41,175 nucleotides of DNA, taken from IMG/VR virus record IMGVR_UViG_3300002168_000007, positions 1-41,175 of that record, one strand, 5' to 3'. Origin of the DNA: a virus. Positions 1-41,175 of the stretch are shown in pieces. Below the pieces are notes generated by a model. The model worked only from the letters and a program-made list of their open reading frames with translations, had not been told where the DNA came from and did no database searches. Within the stretch, counting starts at the first letter, position 1. Each line of letters starts with the position of its first letter. A program made the translations under genes and the position numbers.

Positions 1-98
1 ATTAATCTATCACTTATATAAACTTACTATGTTCTGTTTTTACTTCTTTTGAATATACAAAAATTCCATCAACTTCTTTAAGTATCTTATCTATATCT
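1..98 (+). repeat. Terminal overlap, copy A (identical to 41078..41175)
   Basis: Base-by-base comparison: attaatctatcacttatataaac...atcttatctatatct occurs at both window ends. Confidence 0.95.
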
Positions 99-205
99 TG
101 TCTCATTTCTTTTATGTCATATCCAAATACATCAAACTCTTGCCATACTCCGTTTTTATCTTCATAAGTAACATTTAATTGTAGTTTAGGCTTTGTATAG
201 TTCAT
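14..205 (-). CDS. Hypothetical protein, last gene of early operon (63 aa)
   Basis: ORF track. SD AAGGAGGG lies 5 nt upstream of the ATG. Confidence 0.6.
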   Translation of the reverse strand: MNYTKPKLQLNVTYEDKNGVWQEFDVFGYDIKEMRQDIDKILKEVDGIFVYSKEVKTEHSKFI

Positions 206-18696: not shown

Positions 18697-18969
18697 CTAT
18701 TTAGATAAATTTAAAATAGCAAGTATATAACCTGCTATTCCTGCTATTATACCACCTAAGAATTTCATTATTAATTCATTCTTATTTTTTCTTTGTGTTT
18801 TGTCGAACTCGTCCCATCTATCATTCACTCTATTTACTGTTTTAATTAAGTCTTTTTGGTCAATTCTCATTTCTGTAACTGTTTTTTTTATGTCTTTCAC
18901 ATCATTTTCTAATGCTGTTAATCGTCTTTCTGTGTTTGTGTTTATAATTTCTTGTGCTTCACTATTCAT
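18697..18969 (-). CDS. XhlA-like lysis-associated membrane protein
   Basis: N-terminal coiled coil (RLTALENDVKDIKK...) and a C-terminal TM segment. Positioned upstream of the holin, as in PBSX xhlA-xhlB-xlyA. Confidence 0.6.
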   Translation of the reverse strand: MNSEAQEIINTNTERRLTALENDVKDIKKTVTEMRIDQKDLIKTVNRVNDRWDEFDKTQRKNKNELIMKFLGGIIAGIAGYILAILNLSK

Positions 18970-24360: not shown

Positions 24361-25077
24361 CTATAAGTAAGTTTCTCTATAAATTATTTCTGTTTTTGTT
24401 ACTGAACCAACTAATGAAAAAATATTATTACCTGAATCTAATTTAATATAATTCCCTATTGTATCCCAGTCTTTAGATTGACCATTACTATTAACACATT
24501 CCATGTTTTTACTATCTAACAATACATAATTATTAACGTTATTAATTTGCATTGTTTCTCCGTTATTAGTAATTTGAATATTGCCAGTTCCATAAACTTT
24601 AATTATCGTATCTGCTGCATAACTGCCAGTATTATAAACATTAAAGTTTTTACTTGTAGTAGTAAATGTAGTTTCTTCACAATTATATAAAAAAGGATCA
24701 ACTATAAAAGAAAGTTCTACTTCACCTAAGTTAATCGCTGTTTGTTTAAAACTTGTTAATATTACTTTTTTAACTAGATAACATTTATCGTTGTTAAATA
24801 TTAATCTATTATCATTAACGTTATTTAACCATTGTTTAATTTCATAAAGTTTTTCGTTTAAGTTACTTCCTCTTAAATCAAAAGAAAATTCTAATGTTCT
24901 GTCTTTGTAGTAACCTAAATCTATATACAAACTACCATTTCTACCCTCAACCTCTTGCTGTTCGTATACTTCATTATTTAATTCAATCTCTGGATAATCT
25001 GTAATATACAAATTCATATCTAAATTACTATTATTGTTAAAGTACAAAACTCCTTGTCTTATAGGTAAATCTATCAA
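24361..25077 (-). CDS. Distal tail protein (Dit), TTG start
   Basis: 238 aa, located between the TMP region and Tal. GAGGTG SD lies 5 nt upstream of the TTG. Confidence 0.65.
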   Translation of the reverse strand: MIDLPIRQGVLYFNNNSNLDMNLYITDYPEIELNNEVYEQQEVEGRNGSLYIDLGYYKDRTLEFSFDLRGSNLNEKLYEIKQWLNNVNDNRLIFNNDKCYLVKKVILTSFKQTAINLGEVELSFIVDPFLYNCEETTFTTTSKNFNVYNTGSYAADTIIKVYGTGNIQITNNGETMQINNVNNYVLLDSKNMECVNSNGQSKDWDTIGNYIKLDSGNNIFSLVGSVTKTEIIYRETYL

Positions 25078-25098
25078 ATTATCACCTCACTTTTTGCA

Positions 25099-25127
25099 TA
25101 AAAAAAGAACTAGTAAAAACTAGTTCT
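25099..25127 (-). terminator. Strong intrinsic terminator after the tail-module moron
   Basis: Minus strand: AGAACTAGT-tttt-ACTAGTTCT followed by a T-run (TTTTTTATG). Confidence 0.8.
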
Positions 25128-25614
25128 ATAAATACACTTCTTTATATTCATATTCGCATTCTTTTTTGATTTTTGAATTCAGTTCTTTTAAAAATTTATT
25201 CCAACCTGAACTACCTTCAAGTACTTGAAAATTCAAAACTTTTATTTCTCCATCACTAGATTTGTAATTAATAACTGCAAAGAAATCATAATCAGTCTTT
25301 TCTTTATCATTTATTGCACTCATACCACCAATTATTGCTCCTAGTTGTCCAAGAAGAATTCCACCAATCATTGCTCTACCTGCAACACTTTTTCTTTTTC
25401 TTATTATTTCTTCTTTACTAAAATAATTTACTGCTATTATTTGATTGTAATTCAGATGTATAACTGGCTTTTTATCAAGTATAACGTTTATATCCAAACA
25501 TTCTTTTTCATCATCTAAAGTTAATTTAACTATAGAATTTCTAGCATATTGATTTATCCCATCAAGGTATCTTAATTTTACACTTGTGTTCTTATTTCCT
25601 TTTTTAAAAAACAT
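25126..25614 (-). CDS. Membrane protein moron inserted between TMP and Dit (162 aa). Candidate superinfection-exclusion factor.
   Basis: Central glycine-zipper TM segment GRAMIGGILLGQLGAIIGGMS flanked by two soluble halves. Has its own terminator. Not part of the conserved tail gene order. Confidence 0.6.
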   Translation of the reverse strand: MFFKKGNKNTSVKLRYLDGINQYARNSIVKLTLDDEKECLDINVILDKKPVIHLNYNQIIAVNYFSKEEIIRKRKSVAGRAMIGGILLGQLGAIIGGMSAINDKEKTDYDFFAVINYKSSDGEIKVLNFQVLEGSSGWNKFLKELNSKIKKECEYEYKEVYL

Positions 25615-25652
25615 AACCCCAACCCCTAAAAACTTATATTATTACAATTATT

Positions 25653-27953: not shown

Positions 27954-27960
27954 AATCTAT

Positions 27961-28548
27961 TCACCCCCATTCTGCACGTTTTTTATTTAATAACTCTTGT
28001 TCTTCTTTACTAATCCTATCTTCTAAACTGTAGTATTTCTGTAAATCCGCATACATTTTACGTTCTTTTTTATCCTCAATAGATGTTAAATCAATAGTTC
28101 TGTAATTCATAATCTTAACTATTTCATTGTCATCTTTAAGGCTATTAAATAGCGCCATGAATTCCCACCAGTGAAGATTTTCTTTATTGAGGTTAATATT
28201 ATACTGTGACATAAAAGCTGTGAATATAAGGTCACTATCGGTCTCAAAATCATATGCTCTTTTATTGTTTCTTTTAAATATTCTCTTGCCTTGTTTAACT
28301 TTTTTGTTATCTTCTTCAATATTACCCCTAGAATAGAACCAATAAATTTTATTTATAGCTTCTTCTACGTTATCTGGTATTATAGGATAATAAAGTTTTA
28401 AAGCACCTAATAATTTCTCTTCTTCTGATAAACTATCATCTTGCATCATAAGGGCAAAAATAATAGAAGTACGAAAATCGCTATGAATTTCATACTTCTT
28501 TTTATCAATCTCTATGGTAGTAGGTAAATAGTCAATTAATATATTCAT
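27961..28548 (-). CDS. Gp15-family phage protein (second tail-chaperone-position gene)
   Basis: MNILIDYLPTTIEIDKKKYEIHSDFRTSIIF resembles the bacteriophage Gp15 family. ATGA overlap with the upstream gene. Confidence 0.6.
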   Translation of the reverse strand: MNILIDYLPTTIEIDKKKYEIHSDFRTSIIFALMMQDDSLSEEEKLLGALKLYYPIIPDNVEEAINKIYWFYSRGNIEEDNKKVKQGKRIFKRNNKRAYDFETDSDLIFTAFMSQYNINLNKENLHWWEFMALFNSLKDDNEIVKIMNYRTIDLTSIEDKKERKMYADLQKYYSLEDRISKEEQELLNKKRAEWG

Positions 28549-28883
28549 CTTCTTCTATTTACATGCTTGTTTATTGCTTCAAATTCTTTTTCATAACTTT
28601 TATTAGATGCTTCTATATATAAGAATAGTTCATCAACCGCTTTAGTACATTTTAATAGATTAGTTTTATTACCAAATATCTTTTTATCTGTACCATCACC
28701 AAATAGTCCGTTAAACAAATCAAATACTATTTCACAATGATATCTAATTAATTCAGATGTTTTATTAAACTCTGGTTTATCTTGTAACTTATTATTGTAT
28801 TCATCTTGTAATTCTTCAAATCTCTCCATGACTTCCGCGTCCATGAAATCTAAATCTTGTAATTCTACATTATTAATTTTCAT
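28545..28883 (-). CDS. Tail assembly chaperone (by position)
   Basis: 112-aa acidic protein between the major tail protein and the Gp15-like/TMP genes. Confidence 0.55.
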   Translation of the reverse strand: MKINNVELQDLDFMDAEVMERFEELQDEYNNKLQDKPEFNKTSELIRYHCEIVFDLFNGLFGDGTDKKIFGNKTNLLKCTKAVDELFLYIEASNKSYEKEFEAINKHVNRRR

Positions 28884-28905
28884 TTTACCTACTTCCTTTC
28901 ATTAA

Positions 28906-29394
28906 TTAGTCTGCTGTAAATGTCTTAGTTGTTGGATCAAATTCCCCTTGTGTCCAGTCAGTAACACCTTTAAACGAACCTGTGAATTGTAATTCTCCAT
29001 CTTCGTCATTTAGTTCATCAATAACTACAACTACCTTTCTTTCTCTAGCCTTGTAAGTTCCGTCAGTTGCTCCTGGAGCTTCTGTATCTACAATGCAATA
29101 ATCATAAATACAATCATCTCCAACTAATTCTTGTTCTGCTATCTTCTTTATAGCTTGTATAGCTGCTTCACTTTCTATAACATCAGCTGTAAAAGAACTC
29201 TCCCATTCATAAGATGTGATATTAGATGTTGCACTCTTTTGATGAATGTATCTTTTTGAAGTTGTTACTGGTGAAAAGCTTTCATTTAATTCTGAAAACC
29301 CCATCGTTAATCTTTCATAAGCATCATCAGCTGATGTTGCACCCTTTATTTTTAAGTAGTTTGCTACTACGTGTCTTGATTTTACACCACTCAT
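28906..29394 (-). CDS. Major tail protein
   Basis: 162 aa. Lies directly after the head-tail joining genes and before the chaperones. No sheath gene is present. Confidence 0.7.
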   Translation of the reverse strand: MSGVKSRHVVANYLKIKGATSADDAYERLTMGFSELNESFSPVTTSKRYIHQKSATSNITSYEWESSFTADVIESEAAIQAIKKIAEQELVGDDCIYDYCIVDTEAPGATDGTYKARERKVVVVIDELNDEDGELQFTGSFKGVTDWTQGEFDPTTKTFTAD

Positions 29395-29399
29395 TTTAT

Positions 29400-29822
29400 C
29401 TACTTCCTTTCTTTTAAATAAATTAAGTTAAGTTGTATTTGATAAATTGATTTATCTTCCTCTGTAGAAATAATATAAGGACTAGAAATTACTCTTATTT
29501 GAGTAGCTTCTAATCCTTCTTCTAAAGTAGGAAATATTCCATTGTTATTATTATTTTCTATCCAGTTAGAAAACTCCTCATAGAAGTTACTGTTATCAAT
29601 ATTGCATATTACATCAGCCGAATAAGGCTCTTTAGATGTAAATACAAACTGACATTGTTTTAACATTGAACCATCTATGTATCTTTTTAATACTGGATCG
29701 CAAGGAGTTTCCTCGATAGAAAAACTATCAAAATCATCTTCAAGATAATTAACATTAACATTGTATTCTTTTAAAGCAGGACAATTATTTATATATTCTT
29801 TTATTGCTTCTATAACTTTCAT
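29400..29822 (-). CDS. Head-tail joining / tail completion protein (minor-capsid-protein-3-like position)
   Basis: Synteny. ATGA overlap with the upstream gene. Confidence 0.55.
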   Translation of the reverse strand: MKVIEAIKEYINNCPALKEYNVNVNYLEDDFDSFSIEETPCDPVLKRYIDGSMLKQCQFVFTSKEPYSADVICNIDNSNFYEEFSNWIENNNNNGIFPTLEEGLEATQIRVISSPYIISTEEDKSIYQIQLNLIYLKERK

Positions 29823-30178
29823 TTCTTTCTTCCTCCTACAAAATTAGCAACTGATTGTACTATTTCATTACCGTGCTGTGTCCACATTCTTTTATCCCAT
29901 AATTTCCCACGTGTTCCGCCTAAACTTGTACCTTGCTTTCCCATTCCTTTATTAGAATAGTACTGAAGCTTAGCATAGGGCGCTGAAAATATAATTTGTT
30001 TTGTTTTTATTGTTACATCTATATCTTTTAACCGTCCAGTGTCATAAGGTACAAAATTATTCATCTTAGCGGCGCATTGTTTAGTAAAATATTGTTGTGC
30101 TTTACCGTCCTTATTCAAATACCTGCGTAATAAAATCTTTTGTGTTTTATCCATCTGTATCTTAACTGTATTACTCAT
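29819..30178 (-). CDS. Head-tail joining protein (minor-capsid-protein-2-like position)
   Basis: Synteny. Start and stop are coupled with neighbours. Confidence 0.55.
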   Translation of the reverse strand: MSNTVKIQMDKTQKILLRRYLNKDGKAQQYFTKQCAAKMNNFVPYDTGRLKDIDVTIKTKQIIFSAPYAKLQYYSNKGMGKQGTSLGGTRGKLWDKRMWTQHGNEIVQSVANFVGGRKK

Positions 30179-30498
30179 TATTTACACTCAATTTCCAATT
30201 TGTTAAATAGTTTTTGTGGTCTTACAGCTACGACCACCAACGGATTATATTTTTTAAGAAAATTGCTAACATTGAAATTATCTAAATCAACATCAACATC
30301 TCCTTTAATAATATAATCTCCAACATCTAAGACATTATTAAACGGGCTATAAATCATTGTGGTATCAACAATATTTACTACTTTGCCGCTAATACTAAAA
30401 TTTCTATTAGCTTGTACGTTACATCTATTTAATTTAAATGTAGAATAGCTTTTATCGGCTCCTACGTGGACTATGGTAATAGTTTCTTTACCAAACAT
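30178..30498 (-). CDS. Head-tail joining protein (head closure position)
   Basis: Synteny. Overlapping start and stop. Confidence 0.55.
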   Translation of the reverse strand: MFGKETITIVHVGADKSYSTFKLNRCNVQANRNFSISGKVVNIVDTTMIYSPFNNVLDVGDYIIKGDVDVDLDNFNVSNFLKKYNPLVVVAVRPQKLFNKLEIECK

Positions 30499-30772
30499 AA
30501 AAACACACCTTCTTAGGTAAAAGTGCCAGTATATCGGCTGTTATGAGGTTAGAAGAATTATAACCAGCTTCAAAACTTATTGATTGATTACCTTCAGTTA
30601 TAGAAGTTGCTCCTGCCAATGAATTATTATACATATTCCCCATTTTATTTGATAGCAAATTTACAGCAATTCCAAAATTAGTTCTTATATATTCTTTTGT
30701 ATATTCTCCGTTATAGTAATTAAAGATGGCTAGTACAGCCATCTCATTCAATTCAGTATCAGTAAAAGCCAT
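30488..30772 (-). CDS. Head-tail connector/adaptor protein
   Basis: 94 aa, immediately after the major capsid gene. Confidence 0.55.
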   Translation of the reverse strand: MAFTDTELNEMAVLAIFNYYNGEYTKEYIRTNFGIAVNLLSNKMGNMYNNSLAGATSITEGNQSISFEAGYNSSNLITADILALLPKKVCFYVW

Positions 30773-30784
30773 CTAATCACTCCC

Positions 30785-31711
30785 TTATTTTGCATCTTTT
30801 ATATTAACATAAAGTCCCTTTTGCTTGTTATCTAGTACCCAAATGTCATGGAACTTTCTGTAATCCATAGCCCATGCTCTAGCCTTTTGGTTAACTTCTG
30901 GTGTAAATATTCTCATGTTGTCAGTCTTTTGAACTGCGATAGGTACTTCTCTAGCAACAATTAAGAAGTTTATATCCTTACCATCTGTAGCCTTAGTGAA
31001 TCCACCTGCTTCTTGTCCTGATGTCTTACCATCATTTAAAGTTAATTTTGTTTTCATACAAGCATCTATAACTGGTACTAGTGGAACTCCATCGATAGAA
31101 GGAACTCTTGTATCTACACCATTTACTGCAAATGTTGCAGCTGCTAATTTTTCTCCATAATATTGGGAAACTAAAGCTTGTACATCATATGTAACATAAC
31201 ATACTAAATTACCAGTAAATCCTTCTTTTCTTAATTGTTGAATACCAACTTTGATTTTATCAACTATAGTAGTCTTTGCTGGAGTGTAGTCATATTCTGC
31301 TTGTGTATCTCCATCAACTCCCATAGCTATTTGAGACAATTTTGCTATTCTAATAGCATCAATCTCTGGCACTACCTTAGTTCTTTGGAATTCTCCCATC
31401 ACAGTTGAAGCTGTTACTACAAAATTAGTTTCATCAACGTATAATTCATCAAATGAGAAAGCTCTACCTCTGTCATATTCCATTTTTCTTGTTTCGTATT
31501 CGAATGTAATTCCACCAGATGCGAAACCGTCAGTTCTGTCATAGTTTCCTAAACCGTCCATATCTAGCTTAGGGATCTTAACTTCTGCCCCACCTTTATA
31601 AATTACTTGGGATGCATTTCCTTCCATCCACCCAGTCAATGCTCCTTGTGCTGCTGCTTTATCTAAATTCTTTTGAAATAATGTTGCTGTTGCAATAGTA
31701 TTAATTGCCAT
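30785..31711 (-). CDS. Major capsid protein
   Basis: 308 aa, directly after the scaffold gene. N-terminal MAINTIATATLFQKNLDKAA... is typical of pac-type Firmicute siphovirus capsid proteins. Confidence 0.85.
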   Translation of the reverse strand: MAINTIATATLFQKNLDKAAAQGALTGWMEGNASQVIYKGGAEVKIPKLDMDGLGNYDRTDGFASGGITFEYETRKMEYDRGRAFSFDELYVDETNFVVTASTVMGEFQRTKVVPEIDAIRIAKLSQIAMGVDGDTQAEYDYTPAKTTIVDKIKVGIQQLRKEGFTGNLVCYVTYDVQALVSQYYGEKLAAATFAVNGVDTRVPSIDGVPLVPVIDACMKTKLTLNDGKTSGQEAGGFTKATDGKDINFLIVAREVPIAVQKTDNMRIFTPEVNQKARAWAMDYRKFHDIWVLDNKQKGLYVNIKDAK

Positions 31712-31744
31712 AAAATATCACTCTCTTTCTTTTTTATAAATTAG

Positions 31745-32344
31745 TTATTGTACACCCATAGCACTAGCAATTTGTGCATTGAGTGAGTTATCAACGTTAC
31801 TTTCAGATGGTGGTGTATAAGAACTTGAACTTAATTTATTCTTAACTCCGTTATCTACTGCACCGTTGATTATTTTTTCTATAGATTCAATGTTTTGTGT
31901 AGTAGTTTCATCATTTTCGCCTAGCACAAAATTGATTAAATCTGCATTTAGCCCTTTTTCAGTAAGTACTTTTGTATATTTACTTGTCATATCCGCTTTA
32001 GTTTTTTCTTTTTCTAAAGCTTCAAATTTTGCTTTAAGTTCTTCCAATTCCAGTTGTTCTGGAGTTTTCTTTTTATTGTTTGCTTTCTTAAGTTCTTCCT
32101 CAATAATTTTTGGTAAAGTCTCTTCTTTAAATGTTGCAACACCCTTCCCAATTCCACTATCTAAAGCGGATTGATAATAAGCCTTTACCTCCTTATTGCT
32201 TTCAAGAACCTTTTTAAAATCTTCTAACCCTATAGATGTAATATCAAAAGGTTTAGCTAAACCTTCTATTTCTTGAATTGCTTCGTTTATATCTGCATCA
32301 TCTGCTATATCTTTTAATTTTTCTAATAATTCACTTTTTAACAT
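31745..32344 (-). CDS. Scaffolding protein (GP20-like)
   Basis: 199 aa, highly helical and charged (ELEELKAKFEALEKEK). Upstream of the capsid gene. Confidence 0.75.
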   Translation of the reverse strand: MLKSELLEKLKDIADDADINEAIQEIEGLAKPFDITSIGLEDFKKVLESNKEVKAYYQSALDSGIGKGVATFKEETLPKIIEEELKKANNKKKTPEQLELEELKAKFEALEKEKTKADMTSKYTKVLTEKGLNADLINFVLGENDETTTQNIESIEKIINGAVDNGVKNKLSSSSYTPPSESNVDNSLNAQIASAMGVQ

Positions 32345-32360
32345 TGTTTATCTCCTTTCG

Positions 32361-32454
32361 TCCAAGTAAGTGAGTATTACTCCCAAACAAGTCCTTTAGA
32401 TTAATATTTATTTACCCCTCTCCAAGTAAGTTTTTTACTCCAAACAAGTTTTAG
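32361..32454 (-). repeat. Two ~35-bp direct repeats (32361-32399 and 32421-32454), each holding two ACTTRYTTGG decamers, upstream of the scaffold SD
   Basis: Plus strand: TCCAAGTAAGTgagtaTTACTCCcAAACAAGTccTTTAG versus TCCAAGTAAGTtttTTACTCCAAACAAGTTTTAG. Confidence 0.8.
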
Positions 32455-32497
32455 GGTATAAAAAATAAGCCTGTTTAACGTCTAGTGCTTAAAGACA

Positions 32498-32525
32498 ATA
32501 GAAAAAGAGTAGCCTAAACTACTCT
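32498..32525 (-). terminator. Intrinsic terminator after the collagen-like gene, inside the head module
   Basis: Minus strand: AGAGTAG-tttagg-CTACTCT, then TTTTCTATTG. Confidence 0.65.
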
Positions 32526-32541
32526 ATATTTATCTGTTTTA

Positions 32542-34935
32542 TTAACTTTCGCTTACTGGATATGAGAATGAACCTTGTATGACATAAGTGCCTTCTTTAT
32601 CAAGGATATTACCATGTAATTTTATATCTGTACTTCCTCTATCTAAAACTACTGAAATAGAACTATTTGCTTCTACTACATTTAAGACGGCTTTTGTAGC
32701 AAATCCAATTTTAGGTAAGCTGGTTATATTAATCTTCGTATATCCATATGTCTTATAATCGCTAGGTGCATCAACATGAAGTTCGATTGTTACGTAACAA
32801 ATTCCATTAATTACTTTATATGAAGAACGGCTCTTCGATATAGTTAACCCTAAAGCGGTTTCGTCAAACTTTATCGATGTTTCTTTTACATCAGCAACAC
32901 TTGTAGTACATACTCTTGACCATGTAGGTCCAGTAACATCAATACCTTTTAATTGACCAATATATAAATAATTTTGAGCAATACTAGTACCAGCAGAAAT
33001 TTTAAATTCTATAGAGAATTTTGAATCTTGGTGTTTATGAATAATTAAAATTCCGTTTCCAAAAGGTACATTTGTTATAGAATAATTATCTACCATTTGG
33101 CATAATAAACTATTATCTGGCATATTCTTAAATATATTTTCTACTGTTATAGGTGTTGTTAATCCTAATTGACTTATATCAGTAAATGTTTTTATATTAC
33201 TATCTTTAACCTTATCATAAACACTCTTAGCACTAGGCACTTGTTCATTAGTAACAGTATCATCTAATGTGGTAACTATATCTTCCTTCATTAAGAACTC
33301 GTGCCAGCCACTCCATTCACCAAAGCCTGTTAAGTCAGCACTAGCACCTATAGTATTAACATAAATACGGCCACTAGTTGGACAGTAGAATGTTATATCT
33401 CTATATAGTGGGTCTTGTGATACATCTACAGAACAATAACCATAATTCATATTGTTAGGTAAGTCAGCACAGTTATTTGCATAAAAATAATTATGCGTTA
33501 ATGCACCGAAAGTTTTGGCATAATCTAATACACTTCCACCTTGTAAGTCGAATACATCTAAATAATGCTTGGATTCCAATTCATTTATAGCACCTACTAT
33601 ATTCTTAGAAGTTGTATTAAGTGCATCAGCATTACTATTTCTTAATAATTTATCATGCTCATTAATAGCATTTACTATGCTTGATTTATCCACTGTTAAT
33701 AAATCACTTCTATTACCTACAATTTCTTCAAATGTTAGAGTTGAAATAAATCCTGTAACACTAATGCCAGTTTTTAAAGTTACTTCGCTAGCATCTTCTT
33801 TAGCACTACCTATCCAAAGAGTTTGCACCCATTGCCCCAGTTGCTCCATAGGTTCGTCTATTATTATATACTCGTCAGTTGGTTCTTTTTGTTCACATTG
33901 TACTGTTTCCAATATTGTCGTAGTTCCATCTGCTATTGATTCCTTATATATTGTTGTTGTAATGGCATCTAAATCCATTATTACATAATAAGTATATGTA
34001 TCTTTATCGGTTTTACAAGGTGTATCCACTGTAAAAGTACCACAATATGGTTTCATACTATAGTATACTGCATATTTACCTGCTGTTAAATCAGTCGTAT
34101 TTGGTAAATACATTTTATACTTCCAAGCTGTATTGCTACCATTTCCATCTACTTGATAGTAATACCATGTTTTTAATTCTGTAGTATCATCTGCGATATC
34201 AGGTTTACTTGATACTATGTGTGTATCATTTGTCTCACCTACTAAACTATCAAGATAATCCTGTTCAGTTCCTATAAATCCATTTTTAACAGCTAATTCA
34301 TAGTTATTCATCCCTTGAATACCTTGTAGATTGCCCTTGTAACACCAACTATTATTAATACTGTTTGCATCATCTCTAATATAATAGTCACTTGTATCTA
34401 CATTGATATACATATCTCCTATATGAGAATCTGTTATTTCTACTACGATACTAGATTGGTTACTAGTTATTTCAGTACCTACAAAAATAGCACTCCCTAT
34501 CCCTTGTAAGTTAGGAGTGATTATTGAGCCGTCTGCATCTGTTAATTTTAGAGTATATTCGGTATCACTTTGAGTTGCTATTTCAATAGTAGGATTAACT
34601 CCATCTTCGCCCTTCTCTCCTTGTATACCTTGTATACCTTGTTCCCCTTTATCGCCTTTCTCTCCCTTGTCTCCTGTATCTCCTTTATCACCTTTGACAT
34701 TACCTACATTAATTGTTGTAGAATCTGAAAAGGTTAATATTAATTCATCATTAACTATTTCAGCATTTGTAATACTTACACCATCAGCAGGCTTGGGAAA
34801 TGTCATTGTACTTGAAGTTCCATTAGTCCAGTTAAAAGTAATACTGCAATTATCGTTGTCTACTGTAGCACTAGCTAAACCACTTTGAATTCCATTTACA
34901 AGTTTTTTACTTAAAGCATAAGTTACTATATCCAC
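32542..34935 (-). CDS. Collagen-like repeat fibre protein (797 aa, GTG start)
   Basis: Ten uninterrupted G-X-Y triplets (GDKGDTGDKGEKGDKGEQGIQGIQGEKGEDG). Fibre-type motifs SSIVNAINEH / KNIVGAINEL. GAGGTG SD. Confidence 0.8.
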   Translation of the reverse strand: MDIVTYALSKKLVNGIQSGLASATVDNDNCSITFNWTNGTSSTMTFPKPADGVSITNAEIVNDELILTFSDSTTINVGNVKGDKGDTGDKGEKGDKGEQGIQGIQGEKGEDGVNPTIEIATQSDTEYTLKLTDADGSIITPNLQGIGSAIFVGTEITSNQSSIVVEITDSHIGDMYINVDTSDYYIRDDANSINNSWCYKGNLQGIQGMNNYELAVKNGFIGTEQDYLDSLVGETNDTHIVSSKPDIADDTTELKTWYYYQVDGNGSNTAWKYKMYLPNTTDLTAGKYAVYYSMKPYCGTFTVDTPCKTDKDTYTYYVIMDLDAITTTIYKESIADGTTTILETVQCEQKEPTDEYIIIDEPMEQLGQWVQTLWIGSAKEDASEVTLKTGISVTGFISTLTFEEIVGNRSDLLTVDKSSIVNAINEHDKLLRNSNADALNTTSKNIVGAINELESKHYLDVFDLQGGSVLDYAKTFGALTHNYFYANNCADLPNNMNYGYCSVDVSQDPLYRDITFYCPTSGRIYVNTIGASADLTGFGEWSGWHEFLMKEDIVTTLDDTVTNEQVPSAKSVYDKVKDSNIKTFTDISQLGLTTPITVENIFKNMPDNSLLCQMVDNYSITNVPFGNGILIIHKHQDSKFSIEFKISAGTSIAQNYLYIGQLKGIDVTGPTWSRVCTTSVADVKETSIKFDETALGLTISKSRSSYKVINGICYVTIELHVDAPSDYKTYGYTKINITSLPKIGFATKAVLNVVEANSSISVVLDRGSTDIKLHGNILDKEGTYVIQGSFSYPVSES

Positions 34936-34950
34936 CTTATCACCTCGCTT

Positions 34951-35151
34951 TTATAATGGTTTCCATACTTTATTTTCTTCATCATATTTGTATGTATCAC
35001 TTGTTTCAAAATTAAATAAAATGTCGCCATTATCAAGTTTTACACCTAATAAATTTCCATCACTATCTGGTAAATGTTTATTCGCAGTAATATCTGCTGT
35101 TATACAATTATATTCCTTTAAAAACTCTGTTCTGTTTGCCAAAGTTATCAA
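34951..35151 (-). CDS. Hypothetical protein (66 aa from the TTG at 35151; the ORF track extends to 35190)
   Basis: GGAGG lies 8 nt upstream of the TTG. This start avoids overlap with the minor head protein gene. Confidence 0.5.
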   Translation of the reverse strand: MITLANRTEFLKEYNCITADITANKHLPDSDGNLLGVKLDNGDILFNFETSDTYKYDEENKVWKPL

Positions 35152-35165
35152 TTTACATTCCTCCT

Positions 35166-35897
35166 TTAACTTTCTACAGTGTAGTAACACCTACATTTTA
35201 TATGGATTTTTGCTGGTGGTCTATTTGGGTCATCTATTCTATAAGTTTCCCCATCTAAGTCCTTACATTCTGCACATGTTGCACCATCTAAAGTCGCATT
35301 ACGTGTAACTCTTTCTACTCCTGTATATTTACAAAATTCTTCAAACATATCTTGTCTAACATTGCTTATAGTATCTTCTACTAGCCTTTCAGCATTATAT
35401 TTACTAGTATTAAAAGCCTTTTCTATGTTTCTTCTCATTTGTTCTTTATTAATTTTACCATTAATAAAATCATCAACTTGTTTTCTTAAGTACTTACTAA
35501 TATCTTTGTTATTTTTCCAGATTCTATCACTATAGGTTTTACCATCTATAACCTTATTAGTAATTTTCTTTGCATCTTTAAGTTTATAGTTATAAAATCC
35601 TTCTAGCTTATCCAGTGTATTATTTATTAAACCTTTTGTTATTTTAATTTGGTTAGAAGATTCTTTATTAATGAAAGCAATTATCTTATTACTTAGCTTT
35701 TGATTTATAATAATGCTTTCCGCTTTATCAATTTTGAGGAAGTCCTCAATAACTTTATAATATAACAATAAAAGAGCCACCTCTTTAAGTAACTCCTCTT
35801 TATCATTTTTCTGTTCTTGATATATCTTTTTAAGTTCAGAATCAAGATCATCATATATACCAGAAATTAATTCTAACTCTTCATCTTTACTATACAT
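35166..35897 (-). CDS. Minor head protein (SPP1 gp7 / Mu F-like head morphogenesis protein)
   Basis: C-terminal TRNATLDGATCAECKDLDGETY motif. Follows the portal gene. Confidence 0.8.
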   Translation of the reverse strand: MYSKDEELELISGIYDDLDSELKKIYQEQKNDKEELLKEVALLLLYYKVIEDFLKIDKAESIIINQKLSNKIIAFINKESSNQIKITKGLINNTLDKLEGFYNYKLKDAKKITNKVIDGKTYSDRIWKNNKDISKYLRKQVDDFINGKINKEQMRRNIEKAFNTSKYNAERLVEDTISNVRQDMFEEFCKYTGVERVTRNATLDGATCAECKDLDGETYRIDDPNRPPAKIHIKCRCYYTVES

Positions 35898-37314
35898 TTT
35901 CTACACCGTTTGTGTTAGATTTTTCTTCATTAGAATTTTCACCTATAGACAAATAGTCGTTTGATGAAATTCTATTTAAATCATTTTTAAGTTCTTTCTC
36001 TATCTTTTCGCCCTCTGCTGCTACGTTTTCTATACGTGGTAACCAGCTTCTTAAAGTTTCTTTACTTACTGTATTTGTTGGAGCAATTTTACTAATCATA
36101 TCAGCCAAACCAGTTTCATCTACTGGTACATTAGGAGTAAATCCTATCTTTATAGTATTAGCATCATAATTCTTACTTTCTGTTAAATATAAATGTCTGA
36201 ATAAGCATTGTAAGCGAGTATATAATATATTACTCATAGCTTTCTCATTCATTTTACATTTAGCTTCTAATGATTGGAGCCTACTTCTTAAAGCTATACC
36301 ACTTAAATTACTTTGTAGCTTTTCATTAGTATTAACATGTGATGTTAAGGTATATATTAAATCTTTTAATTCATCCCTAGTACTTTTTATAAATGTATCA
36401 TTGACATTTTTTATTAACCAGTCAGCATCTTGTGTTGTTTTATCACCAAATAACATAATACAATTATTACGCACCACAGGCTCTTTCTTCTTGGGGTTTC
36501 CATTTTCATCTAGTATTACATTTCCATCTTTATCTAACTCTTCTTCTGCTTCTACTCCATATATTTTAAGTATGGCATTTCTAAAATCTGATATTTCACA
36601 TACTGCATCTGATAAATTAGTTTCTAAAGCATCTTGAAGGTTTTTAATAGTCTTGTATATAGTCTTATCACCTTCTAAATAGCCCCTATCTTCGTTGTAA
36701 GCCTTACCGCCTACCATACCAACACCAACTGGTAACATACCGAAATAATGTTCTGTAGAAGGAGCAACCTCTTGCCATTTATCATCAAGGTGATATATAC
36801 GTTCTTCTGTATATACATCTATATAAGTTGTCTCCGGTTCAAGTTGCTTCTTAAACATATGAAGGAAATACGTAGGAATATCATCCTTAATATACATGTA
36901 ACCATCCAAAGGAGTTACTATTTTATTCTTAAACTTGAACTTTTTAGGTTCATATTCTTCTCTGTAGTTAATCTCATAGCATAAACCATACTTTATTAAC
37001 TCTATTCCTAAGTTAATGTCATGATCTGCTTTATTATTCTTTAAATTATAAGCAATATCTTTAACTATTTGCTTATTATCTTCTAAGGAAGTGTATGTAA
37101 TGTCATTACCAAATGAATATTGTGCTTCCTCATCAACTAACTTTTGAATAAAATTCGTATTTACTTTTAGATTACTTCGCCCTTCTCTAGGTGTGAAGTT
37201 TAATAAACTATCTGTACTGCCGTAATAATAGCGATTTATGTCATGATAATATGGGTTCTTAGTTTGATAATCTGCATAACATTTTTGAATAAATTCTAAT
37301 TCTTCTTGTTCCAC
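35890..37314 (-). CDS. Portal protein (SPP1 gp6-like), GTG start
   Basis: 474 aa, immediately downstream of TerL. AAAGGAAGTG SD. Confidence 0.85.
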   Translation of the reverse strand: MEQEELEFIQKCYADYQTKNPYYHDINRYYYGSTDSLLNFTPREGRSNLKVNTNFIQKLVDEEAQYSFGNDITYTSLEDNKQIVKDIAYNLKNNKADHDINLGIELIKYGLCYEINYREEYEPKKFKFKNKIVTPLDGYMYIKDDIPTYFLHMFKKQLEPETTYIDVYTEERIYHLDDKWQEVAPSTEHYFGMLPVGVGMVGGKAYNEDRGYLEGDKTIYKTIKNLQDALETNLSDAVCEISDFRNAILKIYGVEAEEELDKDGNVILDENGNPKKKEPVVRNNCIMLFGDKTTQDADWLIKNVNDTFIKSTRDELKDLIYTLTSHVNTNEKLQSNLSGIALRSRLQSLEAKCKMNEKAMSNILYTRLQCLFRHLYLTESKNYDANTIKIGFTPNVPVDETGLADMISKIAPTNTVSKETLRSWLPRIENVAAEGEKIEKELKNDLNRISSNDYLSIGENSNEEKSNTNGVENV

Positions 37315-37329
37315 TTTAACACTTCCTTT

Positions 37330-39042
37330 CTATCTGTAAATTATGCTAAAACTAGGTCTTAACTGTATTTGATCTATATTATTAATAGCCATTTCAAGTG
37401 AATCTATAGCATCATCATGAATTGTGAATTTTTGACCTCTAAAATCTTGGACTTGTTTATTATATTCAACGTCATTTTCATTAAAGAGAACTTGTCCGCT
37501 GTTTATCTTATCTGTAATAGTCATTATTCTTTGGTCTTTATTTTGAGTATTATAAACTGTTATAACCTCTATATGTCTTTTTCTTAATCTAATATCTTTT
37601 GCTATTGCTTCCTCTATTCTGGTAGCATCTACACCCTTATATACATTCTTTTCTAGTACTACATGGGTTATATCTTCCCATTTTAGAAGTAACATAATAG
37701 TAAAATCTATATATCTATCAAATTCTGTCTTAGAATCGAACCTTTTCAAAGTTCCTTCTCTAACACAATAAAAGCCATTACTCTTACCTAATACAGTAAA
37801 TGCAGTAAAATCTGATTTAGCTGTATTACTTGCACCTTGGTCTATAGATAATAAAGTCTTTTCAAACTTCTTACTTTCCATTTCAATAGAAGGTATCTTT
37901 GCTATAGATTTTACCCATATATCACCAACACTTTCACAATCACACATAAGCTCTTGCATAAATGACAACCTTTTAGTAAAATAATCATTCATTAATTCAC
38001 ATGGATTGTATTTACCTTCCCATAAAGTAGTAAAATTCATTTCTTCTTCATGGTCATAATAAAAAGACTTGGCATTTTCTACTCTATTTTCATCTTTACT
38101 ATTCATTAAAATAGTTCGGTATTCTTGCCATAGTTTAGAATTTTCAACATATTCATCTATATCAAAATCTACTACAGCCCTTCTAAACACTTTAAAGGTA
38201 CTATCTTGTCTTACTGTATTAACTAGATCATCTGCTGCAAGTGGAGTTCCTATTACTATAAATTTAGTATCAATTCCTTGTTTCTTACCTTTTATTACTT
38301 TGGCTTTATCTCCAGCAGGAAGAATTTCTTTATATAGCTTATTTACTGTCTTTTCCTTTGCATTATCAGAAAGTATATCATCTTCTTTCAGTACATCATC
38401 GACAATTACTATTTGCGGTCTTTGTCCTCTGTATTTAGCACCTCTAATTGTACCGCCCCAAGTAAAACCTTGTACCTTAGTACCATTAGATAACTCTAAT
38501 TCTTCTTTATTTACTGTAAATTTCTTTGTATTTATTAACTCCCCAAAGGTTTCTTTTATCTTGTCATATCCTAAACAAGTCCTAACCTCTGATATAAACT
38601 CTTCCATAAGCTTATCCGTTTTACCTATAACTACCGTATACCTACTTATTTGATATACAGCCCCCCATGTTGCAGTTGATGTATTAACCACTGTACTCTT
38701 ACCAATACCTCTAGGAAGTATAAATTCCTCTCTATTAGTTTTATCGTTGATAAGTAAGTCATTTAATTCTTCAAATACCTCATAATGTACTGGTGCTAAT
38801 GGTCTTGAACTATTCTTGTTGGAAGGGATAAATAAATCTCTTAAGAAGTATAGATTAAAGAACTCTATGTCTGTTTTGCCTAAACTTTTAGCGATTAAAT
38901 CTAATCTATCCTTATTATTTTTTATTACAGCCTTAGCCTTGTCGCTACTTCCGTAATATTCACTTAAATACTTAAAAAGTAACACTACACTTAATTCAGT
39001 ATCTTTATATTCTTTATTGTTATAATAATATATCTTGTCCAT
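37330..39042 (-). CDS. terL: Terminase large subunit
   Basis: Walker A LPRGIGKST, Walker B IVIVDD, C-terminal nuclease-like half. 570 aa. Confidence 0.9.
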   Translation of the reverse strand: MDKIYYYNNKEYKDTELSVVLLFKYLSEYYGSSDKAKAVIKNNKDRLDLIAKSLGKTDIEFFNLYFLRDLFIPSNKNSSRPLAPVHYEVFEELNDLLINDKTNREEFILPRGIGKSTVVNTSTATWGAVYQISRYTVVIGKTDKLMEEFISEVRTCLGYDKIKETFGELINTKKFTVNKEELELSNGTKVQGFTWGGTIRGAKYRGQRPQIVIVDDVLKEDDILSDNAKEKTVNKLYKEILPAGDKAKVIKGKKQGIDTKFIVIGTPLAADDLVNTVRQDSTFKVFRRAVVDFDIDEYVENSKLWQEYRTILMNSKDENRVENAKSFYYDHEEEMNFTTLWEGKYNPCELMNDYFTKRLSFMQELMCDCESVGDIWVKSIAKIPSIEMESKKFEKTLLSIDQGASNTAKSDFTAFTVLGKSNGFYCVREGTLKRFDSKTEFDRYIDFTIMLLLKWEDITHVVLEKNVYKGVDATRIEEAIAKDIRLRKRHIEVITVYNTQNKDQRIMTITDKINSGQVLFNENDVEYNKQVQDFRGQKFTIHDDAIDSLEMAINNIDQIQLRPSFSIIYR

Positions 39043-39066
39043 GTGTTACTCCTTTCTTATTTAATA

Positions 39067-39114
39067 CAAAATAAAAAGAGTGGTCTTACTGCTGTCTCAC
39101 GACATGCGCCACTC
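39067..39114 (-). terminator. Terminator-like hairpin immediately upstream of the terL SD
   Basis: Minus strand: GAGTGG...(25-nt interior with a partial extra stem)...CCACTC, then TTTTTATTTTG. Weaker than the other terminators. Confidence 0.4.
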
Positions 39115-39253
39115 GATAAAACTTACTATTTAGTTATATGGTTTTTAAAACTACATAAAACCTAAAAAAATTTTAAAAAATTTTATAGCGATAACCTGAG
39201 CGCCTTCCAACTGTTTCCAGATAGAATAGGCGTGGGTATCTAACTATTACATC

Positions 39254-39361
39254 TAATGAGACATACAGTTAAGTCTAACTAGACATAATTTATGTTCTGT
39301 CTCCTTTGTCTCGTTAACCCCTCAACCCTTGATATTACTGGGTTCGCTTTATGTCTCATTA
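39254..39361. repeat. 12-bp perfect inverted repeat (39254-39265 / 39350-39361) enclosing a cluster of GAGAC/GTCTC and TAGAC/GTCTA motifs
   Basis: TAATGAGACATA versus TATGTCTCATTA. Palindromes GTCTA-ac-TAGAC (39273-39284) and TCTAATTAGA (39364-39373). TGTCTC x2 at 39298-39310. Confidence 0.8.
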
Positions 39362-39428
39362 ACTCTAATTAGACACTTTAGATTATATAAAAATACAAAT
39401 ACATATTATTGTGTATATATAGCAAACA

Positions 39429-39854
39429 CTACTTAGCTATCTTATCTAAATCAATAACATTACTATCATTATTATTATCATCTAGCAATGTATCAAGATC
39501 AATATTTTCAGCATCTTTATTGTTATTAGATACTTCTAATTCAGCCTTAGTAGTAGCTTTACCCAAGGAGCGGTCTAATAATGAGTTCAGGGCTTGTAGC
39601 CTTATAGCCTCACTATCCGCCGTGTAAGCGAGTTTTTTAACTGCGTCCAGTAATTCCCTTGTATCACCCTTAAGACTCGTTAGAGCCTCGTTACACATAA
39701 TCCGTCTTCGCCTGTCCATCTCGCGCTTTATTTCTTCCTTATTCATCCAGTCATAAATCGTCTGTCTAGACATCTTTAATTCTTTAGCAATATCAGCTTT
39801 TGACATACCTTCAGCTAACATACTAATCATTTTATTTTGTTTTTCAGTAAGCAT
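39429..39854 (-). CDS. terS: Terminase small subunit (HTH type)
   Basis: N-terminal HTH MSKADIAKELKMSRQTIYDWMNK, helical oligomerisation region, acidic tail. Upstream of terL. Confidence 0.75.
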   Translation of the reverse strand: MLTEKQNKMISMLAEGMSKADIAKELKMSRQTIYDWMNKEEIKREMDRRRRIMCNEALTSLKGDTRELLDAVKKLAYTADSEAIRLQALNSLLDRSLGKATTKAELEVSNNNKDAENIDLDTLLDDNNNDSNVIDLDKIAK

Positions 39855-39906
39855 TTTTACAATCCCCCCTTTCTGTAAAGTAAAATCTTACGTTTTTTTA
39901 TACATT

Positions 39907-39969
39907 CAAAAGGTGGCCTCCTATAGGTACATATATATTTATTTATATTTGTACTCATAAGCGGCCACC
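39907..39969 (-). terminator. Long hairpin plus a short U-tract between the dual-HTH gene and terS
   Basis: Minus strand: GGTGGCC...GTACAAATATA-aataaa-TATATATGTAC...GGCCACC, then TTTTGAATG. Starts right after the TAG stop. Confidence 0.5.
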
Positions 39970-40611
39970 CTAATTTAATAGTTTTGATAAGTCTAAATAT
40001 AGATCATTTTCTTTATCAACCTTAAATTTATTAACTCTAAAGCAATAAACTCCATTAATAATACTATAATAACTACTAATATCTGCTGTTGCTAGTTGTA
40101 ATTCATTAAGAGTAATATCACCATTTAAATATCTTTTCTGTAATTGCTTAAGAGCCTTAATATAAGACATGTTTCTCCAGAAGGAATTATATTCCTCTTT
40201 AGATACTTCAACAGCTTCATTATCTCCTAAAGTTAGTTTAAAATAATAAAAGCCGTCTCTTGACATAACTTTATTATCAATAAGTTTTTTATCCCATCTA
40301 ACAACAGTATTTTTATTAACACATGAATTAATAGCAATATCCTTTATACTAATAGCTTTATTTTGCAATCTATCATTTAAGTATTTTGTAAAGTTATAAG
40401 GCTTTCTAATATTTAAAGTAGATAAGGCCTTAATTCCTGGATTATCATTTTCAACTATGTTGTAAGTAGTTTTATTACCTTTAGATATATTAATAAGTTT
40501 ATAACCTAAAGTATTTAATTTTTTATTCAATGTATTACGTTTTTCCATTTTCCTAATACTATTTGTACTAGTATTTAATAATTCTGCTAATTGTTTTCTA
40601 GTGTAAATCAT
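39970..40611 (-). CDS. Dual-HTH DNA-binding protein, first gene of the late operon (213 aa from the ATG at 40611; the ORF track extends to 40638)
   Basis: HTH-like YTRKQLAELLNTSTNSIRKMEKRN and ISIKDIAINSCVNKNTVVRWDKK. GAGG lies 6 nt upstream of the ATG at 40611. Confidence 0.6.
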   Translation of the reverse strand: MIYTRKQLAELLNTSTNSIRKMEKRNTLNKKLNTLGYKLINISKGNKTTYNIVENDNPGIKALSTLNIRKPYNFTKYLNDRLQNKAISIKDIAINSCVNKNTVVRWDKKLIDNKVMSRDGFYYFKLTLGDNEAVEVSKEEYNSFWRNMSYIKALKQLQKRYLNGDITLNELQLATADISSYYSIINGVYCFRVNKFKVDKENDLYLDLSKLLN

Positions 40612-40885
40612 GTTTAACCTCATAAAAAATAAGAGCAACTACAATGTAATTACTCTTATAATCATAGGCGCTTTCGTCCTAACATTTTCGGTCTCCTATG
40701 TACCTATATATATCTTTACTTACTTTAATACTATTGTACCGCCCGCAAAAACGAGCCACGAAAGATATATCTATTATAATCGACTTATAGTCTTTGTAAT
40801 ATGCTTATTACCTCGCCACTTTATACACTTGCGTAGTGTAATGCTTATTTGACGCATTCACCGATAAATGATAAATATAAGCATT

Positions 40886-40910
40886 AAAAAACCACCGGTG
40901 GAGTCGGTGG
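40886..40910 (-). terminator. Promoter-proximal intrinsic terminator
   Basis: Minus strand: CCACCG-actccac-CGGTGG followed by TTTTTT. Confidence 0.7.
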
Positions 40911-41006
40911 CTTCTCATTACTTATACGAGGGGATGGTAAAAGTGTAATATCTTTTTCACAAAGAAAATATAATTAAAGAACGTATTTATTATTCTTTAC
41001 AATATT

Positions 41007-41015
41007 ATTATAGCA
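41007..41015 (-). promoter_or_regulatory. Extended -10 promoter element TGCTATAAT (candidate late promoter, no recognisable -35)
   Basis: The minus strand reads ...ACGTGCTATAATAATATTG.... The nearest upstream sequence is the phased repeat array. Confidence 0.45.
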
Positions 41016-41020
41016 CGTAT

Positions 41021-41061
41021 TTCTTGTAATTTTGTGTAATGTTTGTGTAAATTTTGTGTAA
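41021..41061. repeat. Four helically phased direct repeats TTTGTGTAA (one degenerate), spacing 10-11 bp
   Basis: Plus strand: TTCTTGTAA at 41021, TTTGTGTAA at 41031, 41042 and 41053. Confidence 0.85.
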
Positions 41062-41077
41062 TGAAAAAGCGATAGAA

Positions 41078-41175
41078 ATTAATCTATCACTTATATAAAC
41101 TTACTATGTTCTGTTTTTACTTCTTTTGAATATACAAAAATTCCATCAACTTCTTTAAGTATCTTATCTATATCT
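41078..41175 (+). repeat. Terminal overlap, copy B (identical to 1..98)
   Basis: Base-by-base identity with the window start. Contains the 3' part of gene 14..205. Confidence 0.95.

Follow-up and report, generated by a model that had tools for sequence, protein, structure and literature searches.

A late-operon control region of the Ltr kind with conserved predicted terminators in its leader, in a temperate Clostridium-type siphophage

Introduction

Packaging and lysis in a very large fraction of the temperate phages of Gram-positive bacteria are under the control of Ltr-type regulators, which through packaging also govern how virulence and resistance genes are transduced and pathogenicity islands mobilised. 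In the Ltr superfamily, direct repeats just downstream of the regulator's operon are the specificity determinants of the late (terS) promoter (PMC3753634). In Staphylococcus systems the same intergenic region also contains a terminator of the ltr transcript (PMC3152322, PMC3753634), and Alt of TP901-1 binds direct repeats located at -76 to -32 relative to the late start (summarised in PMC3152322). Here we describe the region that controls the late operon of a temperate Clostridium-type siphophage with a circular genome of roughly 41 kb, from 41,175 nt of viral DNA (IMG/VR record IMGVR_UViG_3300002168_000007, positions 1 to 41,175; "the window" denotes this whole stretch). By its layout the region is of the Ltr/RinA/Alt kind, and its promoter is followed by two predicted intrinsic terminators ahead of the first late gene. 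The comparative finding that such a terminator-gated leader is conserved after an Ltr-type promoter is new here.

A promoter-proximal intrinsic terminator is also part of the lambda Q/PR'/tR' and Pseudomonas AlpA systems, in which a DNA site at the promoter loads the factor and the terminator blocks other polymerases. AlpA, long called an activator, was found to bind a promoter element and to take polymerase through a terminator in the leader (PMC7969949, PMC9371919). Antitermination RNAs that act in cis are known from conjugative elements of Firmicutes (PMC8191782, PMC11658703), where conAn of pLS20 and canT of Tn916 serve long operons punctuated by terminators and are associated with a long structured leader and a terminator that insulates against outside transcription. 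The locus described below shares these general features with conAn and canT and the logic of promoter and terminator with lambda Q and AlpA.

The late control region

All relevant genes of the phage lie on the minus strand. The elements of the control region, listed in the direction of transcription, are these:

41067 to 41092, minus strand: T0, the early-operon terminator, a hairpin of -11.5 to -12.0 kcal/mol followed by T5
41021 to 41061, minus strand: four direct repeats at a 10- to 11-nt phase, three of them exact copies of TTACACAAA and one TTACAAGAA, the proposed regulator sites
41007 to 41015, minus strand: extended -10 TGCTATAAT of the late promoter, without a -35
40976 to 40998, minus strand: 5'-proximal leader hairpin AAAGAA...TTCTTT, read from the sequence
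40886 to 40910, minus strand: T1, leader intrinsic terminator predicted by folding, CCACCG-N7-CGGTGG plus U6, with an A-rich 5' flank
40824 to 40840, minus strand: H2, conserved leader hairpin TACACT-N5-AGTGTA, found by comparison with relatives
40796 to 40811, minus strand: H3, conserved leader hairpin GTAATA-AGCA-TATTAC, with compensatory changes in relatives
40773 to 40800, minus strand: P2, promoter-like ATTACA-16-TATAAT, a candidate alternative start between T1 and T2
40665 to 40781, minus strand: optional GC-rich insert flanked by a GATTATAA direct repeat, outside the core
40623 to 40659, minus strand: T2, second leader terminator, a 14-bp hairpin plus U6 that ends just before the GAGG ribosome-binding site (RBS)

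The repeats sit straight after T0 and upstream of the late promoter, as in the Ltr-type layout. The window as a whole has just three exact copies of TTACACAAA, each on the minus strand (41061-41053, 41050-41042 and 41039-41031), and the fourth repeat, at 41029-41021, could be read only as the degenerate TTACAAGAA; the spacing from one repeat to the next is 11, 11 and 10 nt. An original prediction, made from the sequence without database searches, had described four repeats phased at 10 to 11 bp, of which the phasing stands and the identity of the fourth copy does not. The array abuts the extended -10 and occupies the position of a -35. As had been predicted, the promoter has no -35: the hexamer 17 nt upstream of the extended -10 is ACAAAA, and a sigma-70 consensus scan does not call the site. 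From the extended -10, transcription would start near 41000. Since TGNTATAAT by itself is no rarer than chance (6 found versus 7 expected), the weight of the extended -10 comes from its conservation in relatives.

Intrinsic terminators are present between the late promoter and the late genes in the form of T1 and T2, both of which are predicted to terminate transcription in vivo. Folded with its A/U flanks, T1 reaches -14.3 kcal/mol on the minus strand versus -10.3 kcal/mol on the plus strand. It would lie at about +92 to +115 from the predicted start, with its U-run at about +110 to +115, which bears out the placement of a clean terminator before any late gene. T2, which had been overlooked together with T0, folds at -13.9 to -14.9 kcal/mol on the minus strand versus -6.3 kcal/mol on the plus strand, and its U-run ends about 12 nt before the ATG of the first late gene, adjoining the RBS, so that no start site is possible downstream of T2. 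Ending the regulator's transcript, the role that the literature gives to the terminator of 80alpha and phi11 (PMC3152322, PMC3753634), falls here to T0, which lies directly before the repeats, and therefore cannot account for T1 and T2. We dropped the idea that T1 serves a convergent plus-strand gene, as there is neither a plus-strand U-run nor a credible plus-strand gene.

The leader holds further elements between T1 and T2. In H3, changes on both sides of the stem were seen at three of the six pairs among eight sequences, the variants being GTAATA/TATTAC, GTGATA/TATCAC, GTGGTA/TACCAC and GCGATA/TATCGC; H3 may form a structure in the RNA, or it may be a palindrome to which a protein binds. 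P2 has a sigma-70-like score of 10/12, the joint top of the region, which eight sites share. It is kept only partly in relatives, among which the spacing to the -35-like element varies. The region had no match in Rfam at gathering thresholds, and only chance-level matches at E values up to 10. Hexamers resembling a -10 are present in the early transcribed region and by eye are no different from chance at 70% A+T; a sigma-dependent pause element was dropped as a candidate because, in a sequence this AT-rich, it was indistinguishable from chance. A riboswitch-like closing helix between the box YTTATA after T1 and the 5' arm of T2 (TATAAG) was also abandoned, since it comprises only 6 to 8 AU pairs and is not predicted by RNAalifold.

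The GC-rich module of about 120 nt contains CTTTCGTGGCTCGTTTTTGCGGGCGG, AGGTACATAGGAGACCGAAA (two copies in the relative L004) and TTAGGACGAAAGCGCC. A reading of the sequences gives about 97% identity for its copies in L004 and L012, and the genes on either side of it in these phages are 33 to 36% identical. It was located at 1640-1780 in L004 and, rearranged, at 1-150 in L011, and it is absent from L021 and L018. Its sequence suggests either a small element that was inserted or is mobile, or an accessory RNA module. Being an optional insert missing from L021 and L018, it was dropped as the core of an antitermination RNA or as a pac site.

Comparison with Ltr systems

The original prediction had set this region apart from the RinA/ArpU/Ltr type of activation that is usual for Firmicute siphoviruses. 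That contrast falls away, because the promoter module has the Ltr layout (PMC3753634; for Alt, PMC3152322) and, judged by its organisation, is the RinA/ArpU/Ltr model itself. With RinA of phi11 and 80alpha, ArpU and LtrA-C, the locus shares a regulator gene late in the early operon and a regulator C terminus resembling sigma-70 region 4, as well as two to four short direct repeats, which in the Ltr superfamily set regulator specificity, followed by the promoter of the packaging, morphogenesis and lysis operon. In 80alpha, two TGGCAGT repeats lie directly after rinA, and a strong terminator (GGGTTGGCT...AGCCAATCC plus U6) stands between the repeats and terS. The present locus differs from these systems in its regulator, which belongs to a distant branch of proteins of about 170 aa with a long N-terminal helical part; in the separate T0 before the repeats, with the regulator gene 1.6 kb from the promoter; and in the two or three leader terminators that follow a clear extended -10, the last of them abutting the RBS.

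In TP901-1, as here, the repeats reach to about -32 beside the late promoter and a long leader precedes terS; by our own reading of the sequence this leader is about 490 nt if the repeats lie just after alt. A hairpin with a U-run is found just before the terS RBS. The likeness is one of layout; the TP901-1 leader differs in containing two tRNA-like genes. ARAGORN detected these in the alt-terS leader (L027) as a Lys-UUU gene at 1135-1209 and an 88-nt Ala-CGC gene at 1289-1376, both missing from the feature table of the record.

Conservation among relatives

We compared the region with eight metagenomic relatives, all distinct, and with three phages of Clostridium tetani. INPHARED had no match to the control region in either near or distant DNA searches, and scans of IMG/VR with the large terminase subunit (TerL), the 213-aa product of the first late gene and the leader motif gave nothing useful. 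Scans with the T0 motif returned only L021 again from IMG/VR and one unrelated context from metagenomes.

The order of T0, four repeats at an 11-nt phase, -10, at least one canonical terminator and first gene is kept in 8/8 metagenomic relatives. T0 is nearly invariant (GCGrTAGATTAATTTCTATCGCTTTTT), except that L004 has its own hairpin of different sequence, and TGnTATAAT stands at the same position in seven of the eight, L004 having TTATATAAT. Most relatives carry both T1 and T2, and L021 and L019 have a third hairpin with U7-8. An additional gene with T2-type hairpins before and after it occurs in L017 and L018; L019 lacks T1; there an inserted gene is preceded by a weaker hairpin that does not fold cleanly and is followed by U7. 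The T1 stem is CCACCG/CGGUGG in the window, CCACCA/UGGUGG in L021 and CCCAUC(A)/(U)GGUGGG in others. T2 forms a clean hairpin in nine of ten instances (L019up is the exception), with an invariant outer stem, a covarying inner stem and an invariant ATTATAAGAGTA at its foot. The leader backbone is found with two different terminase families.

The RNA between promoter and T1 behaves differently. It varies in sequence among relatives, in which the T1 U-run ends anywhere from about +51 (L017) to about +160 (L018), and conserved hairpins are found only downstream of T1. A hairpin GUAGAAAG...CUUUCU resembling the 5'-proximal AAAGAA...TTCTTT was seen by eye, unfolded, in most relatives and is absent from L017. 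Such variability speaks against a put-like element ahead of T1.

The three C. tetani phages have regulators only 27 to 33% identical to the 176-aa regulator of the window, and each has three phased repeats, a -10 (TGGTAGAAT, TGCTAGAAT or TGTGATAAT; that is, TGnTAnAAT, including TGnTAGAAT, or TGTGATAAT), and then, at the end of a leader of some 125 nt, a terminator that precedes the first late gene. The plan is that of the window, in sequences unrelated to it. Two of the three, phiCT453B and phiCT19406C, have a terminator U-run that abuts the RBS. The repeats-to-terminator arrangement is thus kept in 11/11 diverged relatives, with compensatory changes. The C. tetani leader (L028, L030 and L031) is almost identical from phage to phage though the repeats differ, and it is too conserved for covariation testing. 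Directly ahead of the terminator it forms the hairpins GTTACAG...CTGTAAC and GGCAGG...CTTGCC, and it also has a perfect TATAAT, by our count at roughly +10 to +16; these features recall put RNA or a sigma-dependent pause signal.

Repeats, promoter, terminators and the order of the late operon, together with a layout kept in relatives, confirm the assignment of the region as a late control region. They also agree with the claim that late transcripts must cross intrinsic terminators, given that T1 and T2 precede the first gene and are conserved in diverged relatives.

The regulator and the first late protein

Two genes had been put forward, besides the leader RNA, as the source of a factor acting on the late transcript:

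1653 to 2183, minus strand: late regulator gene, 176 aa, a distant RinA/Ltr branch with a sigma-70 region-4-like C-terminal helix-turn-helix (HTH)
39970 to 40611, minus strand: first late gene, 213-aa protein with tandem winged helices in an AlphaFold model

The regulator gene belongs to the late part of the early operon, with five small genes and 1.6 kb between it and the late promoter downstream. Its product matched the PHROGs family phrog_36 ("transcriptional regulator") at 5.5e-17 and TIGR01636 (phage_rinA) at an E value of 3.4e-5, which is below the curated cut-off; Pfam gave sub-threshold matches to DUF1492 and weak ones to HTH families. The family comprises about 150 clusters of uniformly ~170-aa proteins. 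Among 61 members scanned, 40 matched phage_rinA (best 1.2e-9), 38 sigma70-ECF and 5 ArpU, and in Pfam 11 matched Sigma70_r4 and 9 DUF1492; it is by these families that the Ltr superfamily is defined. By these profile matches the 176-aa protein is a distant member of the RinA/sigma-70-region-4 family, and the relationship is remote. As a candidate named in the original prediction, it is best read as a RinA-type regulator and shows no likeness to a known antiterminator.

Regulators 86 to 90% identical to that of the window go with TTACACAAA-type repeats, one that is 54% identical goes with TTGCATAAA/TTACATAAA repeats, and the L004 regulator, 32% identical and with a divergent HTH, goes with GCAAAATAA repeats. 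The regulator of L019 is 53% identical, yet its repeats are still class A. Across relatives the pattern is consistent with regulator and repeats changing together, a trend drawn from the only three repeat classes available, and the 176-aa protein presumably binds the repeats. One element, L021/L022 (the same contig as L023 of IMG/VR), has a class A control region and late genes with no 176-aa regulator gene within 2.7 kb upstream; the genes upstream of its control region are unrelated and oppositely oriented. This could be a different arrangement of the early module or an element that relies on a helper's regulator.

A Q-type factor had also been invoked. Comparison of 30 early-region and packaging proteins with PHROGs, 10 of them also with Pfam, revealed no Q of lambda or of phage 82/21, no N, no NusG-like protein and no member of other antiterminator families.

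The 213-aa protein belongs to a small family of 22 proteins and had no PHROG match and no significant Pfam match. Its AlphaFold model has a predicted local distance difference test score (pLDDT) of 75; a fold search with it against the PDB yielded nothing at E <= 0.001, with only weak winged-helix and MarR-like matches. The ConAn1 domain (PF17362) was not found by Pfam in this protein or in the small terminase subunit. The gene of the 213-aa protein accompanies the leader in most relatives that have it, and L017 and L018 place another gene first. Being encoded downstream of both T1 and T2, and not by the first gene in all relatives, the 213-aa protein cannot be the primary factor.

Hairpins within the late operon

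Beyond the leader, the late operon contains hairpins with U-runs in its intergenic gaps:

39907 to 39969, minus strand: long hairpin plus U4 before terS, a borderline terminator (-30.9 kcal/mol, negative heuristic score)
39067 to 39114, minus strand: hairpin plus U5 before terL (-16.4 kcal/mol)
32498 to 32525, minus strand: hairpin plus U5 before the scaffold and capsid genes (-9.3 kcal/mol)
25099 to 25127, minus strand: hairpin plus U7 before Dit (-13.0 kcal/mol)
19290 to 19320, minus strand: hairpin plus U5 after the gene of a 798-aa tail protein (-14.1 kcal/mol)
18380 to 18412, minus strand: hairpin plus U-run between the holin and endolysin genes
17455 to 17493, minus strand: hairpin at the end of the late operon (-16.9 kcal/mol)

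Six of these had been predicted; all six exist and all are more stable as minus-strand RNA. The hairpin between the holin and endolysin genes had been missed. The one before terS is borderline because of its long AU-rich interior and only four U. Terminator-like sites are about threefold more frequent than in shuffled sequence, with 9 versus 2.8 +/- 1.9 at 30000-41175 and 9 versus 3.0 +/- 1.8 at 17300-30000. A second scan gave 16 versus 4.2 +/- 1.9 in shuffles on the sense strand, its shuffles setting the chance expectation at about 0.02 such terminators per 100 nt; on the antisense strand, left unshuffled, it gave 13, for the most part hairpins that are long and weak. Two more distant relatives, L008 and L009, have hairpins after the scaffold and capsid genes.

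Directly upstream of terL, a near-identical hairpin (GAGTGGCGCATGTCGTGA...ACCACTC plus a U-run) is present at 4032-4075 in L017 and at 39078-39114 in the window; the L017 TerL belongs to a different family, Terminase_3. Within the open reading frame (ORF) 18697..18969 lies a sigma-A-type promoter with an extended -10 (TTAATA-17-TGGTATAAT, 18774-18746, minus strand), just upstream of an ORF that the original prediction labelled a holin. By its sequence it may be an independent promoter for the lysis genes.

Promoter-coupled antitermination and its alternatives

We postulate that the late promoter is coupled to antitermination in the manner of lambda Q and AlpA, the best reading in our view, to which we assign a probability of roughly 45%. 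Early transcription would end at T0. The 176-aa RinA/Ltr-superfamily protein would bind the four phased repeats in place of a -35 and drive host sigma-A RNA polymerase from the extended -10 promoter, and the resulting transcript would meet T1, and then T2 directly before the first RBS, ahead of any late gene. T1 and T2 would act as a fail-safe gate at which polymerases arriving by early read-through or leak are stopped, and polymerases that start at the late promoter with the regulator would become resistant to terminators. The same resistance would help polymerase through the weaker hairpins of the 23-kb operon. The proposal builds on the anatomy of the region, its conservation and the family of the regulator, which sequence and comparisons establish, and on the consistent trend that links regulator and repeats; that the regulator actively confers read-through is what we infer from them.

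This reading is favoured by three considerations. Serial terminators scale basal and induced expression equally, so there would be no regulatory gain unless the initiating polymerase is treated differently. T0 followed by T1 and T2 is the layout expected if only promoter-loaded polymerases pass, and AlpA provides a precedent. Some control of read-through also seems a reasonable conclusion from the conserved crossing of terminators across diverged relatives.

A number of points weigh on the other side. Start site, termination and read-through are all predicted, and hairpins with 6-bp GC stems in a low-GC context may terminate only partly. The comparative set is small and its members are phylogenetically related. 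The regulator has no part resembling a known antiterminator, and a single-sequence structure model of it (pLDDT 57) was too poor to use. No counterpart of the hairpin at 32525 was found in L003, the closest relative. Terminator-like hairpins in late operons are usually taken as partial terminators or RNA-stability elements. The chain of operon hairpins had been presented as demanding processive antitermination; the same scan gives 15 terminator-like candidates in the 26.5-kb late operon of 80alpha, so such hairpins are common and do not by themselves demand it, and as evidence for it the chain is weak. Ltr proteins have been described experimentally only as activators (PMC3152322, PMC3753634). 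In 80alpha and phi11, moreover, a 5' end that depends on rinA was mapped 23 to 24 nt before terS by a method that its authors deem specific for primary ends (PMC3152322), and as this end lies downstream of the terminator it favours a downstream promoter there.

A serious rival, and quite a possible one, is that the regulator does nothing but recruit polymerase. T1, T2 and the operon hairpins would then be partial terminators, insulators or 3'-end stabilisers, passed by enough polymerases through passive read-through once the promoter is fully on, with the terminators lowering basal leak and tuning gene dosage. Activation of this sort matches the experimental descriptions of Ltr, RinA and Alt (PMC3152322, PMC3753634) and sits well with the lack of an antiterminator homologue among the proteins scanned, with internal hairpins that are common in other late operons and not all conserved, and with heuristic terminator scores that are only modestly positive (d'Aubenton-Carafa scores, indicative only). 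It accounts less well for two or three serial terminators, which would cut induced and basal expression alike, bring no gain in dynamic range and reduce the output of genes that need high-level expression. T0 already insulates against early read-through, and the arrangement persists in every diverged relative. An improbable alternative shifts the real start downstream, to P2 or to the TATAAG in the T2 arm, so that the extended -10 yields a short RNA to T1 or nothing useful and the regulator acts at a distance, as proposed for RinA. The mapped 5' end in 80alpha and phi11, the joint top score of P2 and the invariant ATTATAAGAGTA speak for it, and RNA starting inside the 5' arm of T2 would be unable to form T2. 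P2, however, is only partly conserved with shifting spacing and still lies upstream of T2 in the window; the single leader terminator of phiCT19406C and phiCT453B abuts the RBS; and an RNA ending at T1 that varies in sequence and length counts against a functional small RNA.

Antitermination might instead reside in the RNA, a structured leader of the put, EAR, conAn2 or canT type acting in cis, perhaps with the first late protein. The conserved hairpins between T1 and T2, the compensatory changes in H3, the paired hairpins just upstream of the C. tetani terminator, the cis-acting RNAs of Firmicute conjugative elements (PMC8191782, PMC11658703) and the winged-helix gene that travels with the leader all point that way. 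We nevertheless consider it very improbable: nothing is conserved from promoter to T1 in the window's group, and with the T1 U-run of L017 ending at about +51, T1 could not be bypassed so. Rfam has no match, the GC-rich module is optional, the 213-aa protein is without PF17362, and L017, L018 and the C. tetani phages have a different first gene. Unlike the region described here, conAn and canT are not tied to an Ltr-type promoter; they also differ in that this phage has no ConAn1 domain and no conserved leader RNA upstream of T1. True homology to lambda PR'-Q-tR' or HK022 put is effectively refuted. The order of parts (regulator gene late in the early operon, promoter, terminator before the late genes) is all that is common, and against it stand the lack of a Q-family protein among those scanned, the lack of a two-stem put-like RNA or an Rfam match, and a promoter without a -35, unlike the constitutive PR' of lambda with its full -35 and -10. 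No sequence or detectable fold relationship links this locus to the lambda Q and AlpA systems, and antitermination here is proposed by analogy.

Promoter-coupled antitermination could be extended to Firmicute phages, whose Ltr/RinA "late activators" would be promoter-loaded antiterminators besides or instead of activating. Bound to the repeats, the regulator would attach to polymerase at initiation and take it past the conserved leader terminators and on through the entire late operon. We regard this extension as doubtful. If it is true, control of the Q/AlpA type extends to Firmicute phages, and annotations of late promoters and "terminators" would change. It would also explain how RinA can work at a distance of more than 155 bp, from a site upstream of the mapped terS 5' end with a terminator in between; the authors of the RinA study noted that binding at this distance implies more than direct activation (PMC3152322). 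The layout here is unusually clean, with a separate early terminator, repeats abutting an extended -10 and two to three canonical terminators, the last touching the RBS, and it reduces the choice between activator and antiterminator to a simple question for a reporter assay or for transcription in vitro.

Genome organisation and minor observations

The window has a G+C content of 29.5% and is a phage genome. Its positions 1-98 are identical to 41078-41175, an exact 98-nt terminal overlap that had been missed in the original prediction. From this overlap the assembly is circular and closed, at about 41,077 bp, and the early operon, whose last gene is at 205..14, is therefore contiguous with the late control region. 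The genes that frame the region are as follows:

14 to 205, minus strand: last early-operon gene, 63 aa, from the ORF list, reading into T0 over the circular junction
39429 to 39854, minus strand: terS, terminase small subunit (phrog_2538 at 1.5e-25)
37330 to 39042, minus strand: terL, terminase large subunit (phrog_38 at 1.9e-65)

The early, replication-type operon runs on the minus strand from about 14.2 kb down to position 14 and encodes an anti-repressor, Gam, Erf, DnaD- and DnaC-like loaders, SSB and a RusA-like resolvase. The late operon extends from 40611 down to 17499 on the same strand (about 23 kb), in the order 213-aa protein, terS, terL, other structural genes and finally a 286-aa ORF. 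The label "endolysin" for this ORF and the names of tail and lysis genes are those of the original prediction; portal/MuF and scaffold were assigned via synteny with relatives. No isolated phage has a TerL more than 38% identical to this one; the nearest are those of Clostridium perfringens and Clostridioides difficile phages, and closer relatives came from gut metagenomes only.

The stretch between terS and terL (39043-39428, 386 nt) is noncoding in the window and contains the 39114 hairpin. Relatives have genes for HNH or GIY-YIG homing endonucleases there, at 258-827 in L003, 3374-3943 in L004, 7526-8797 in L013 and 7577-8158 in L018.

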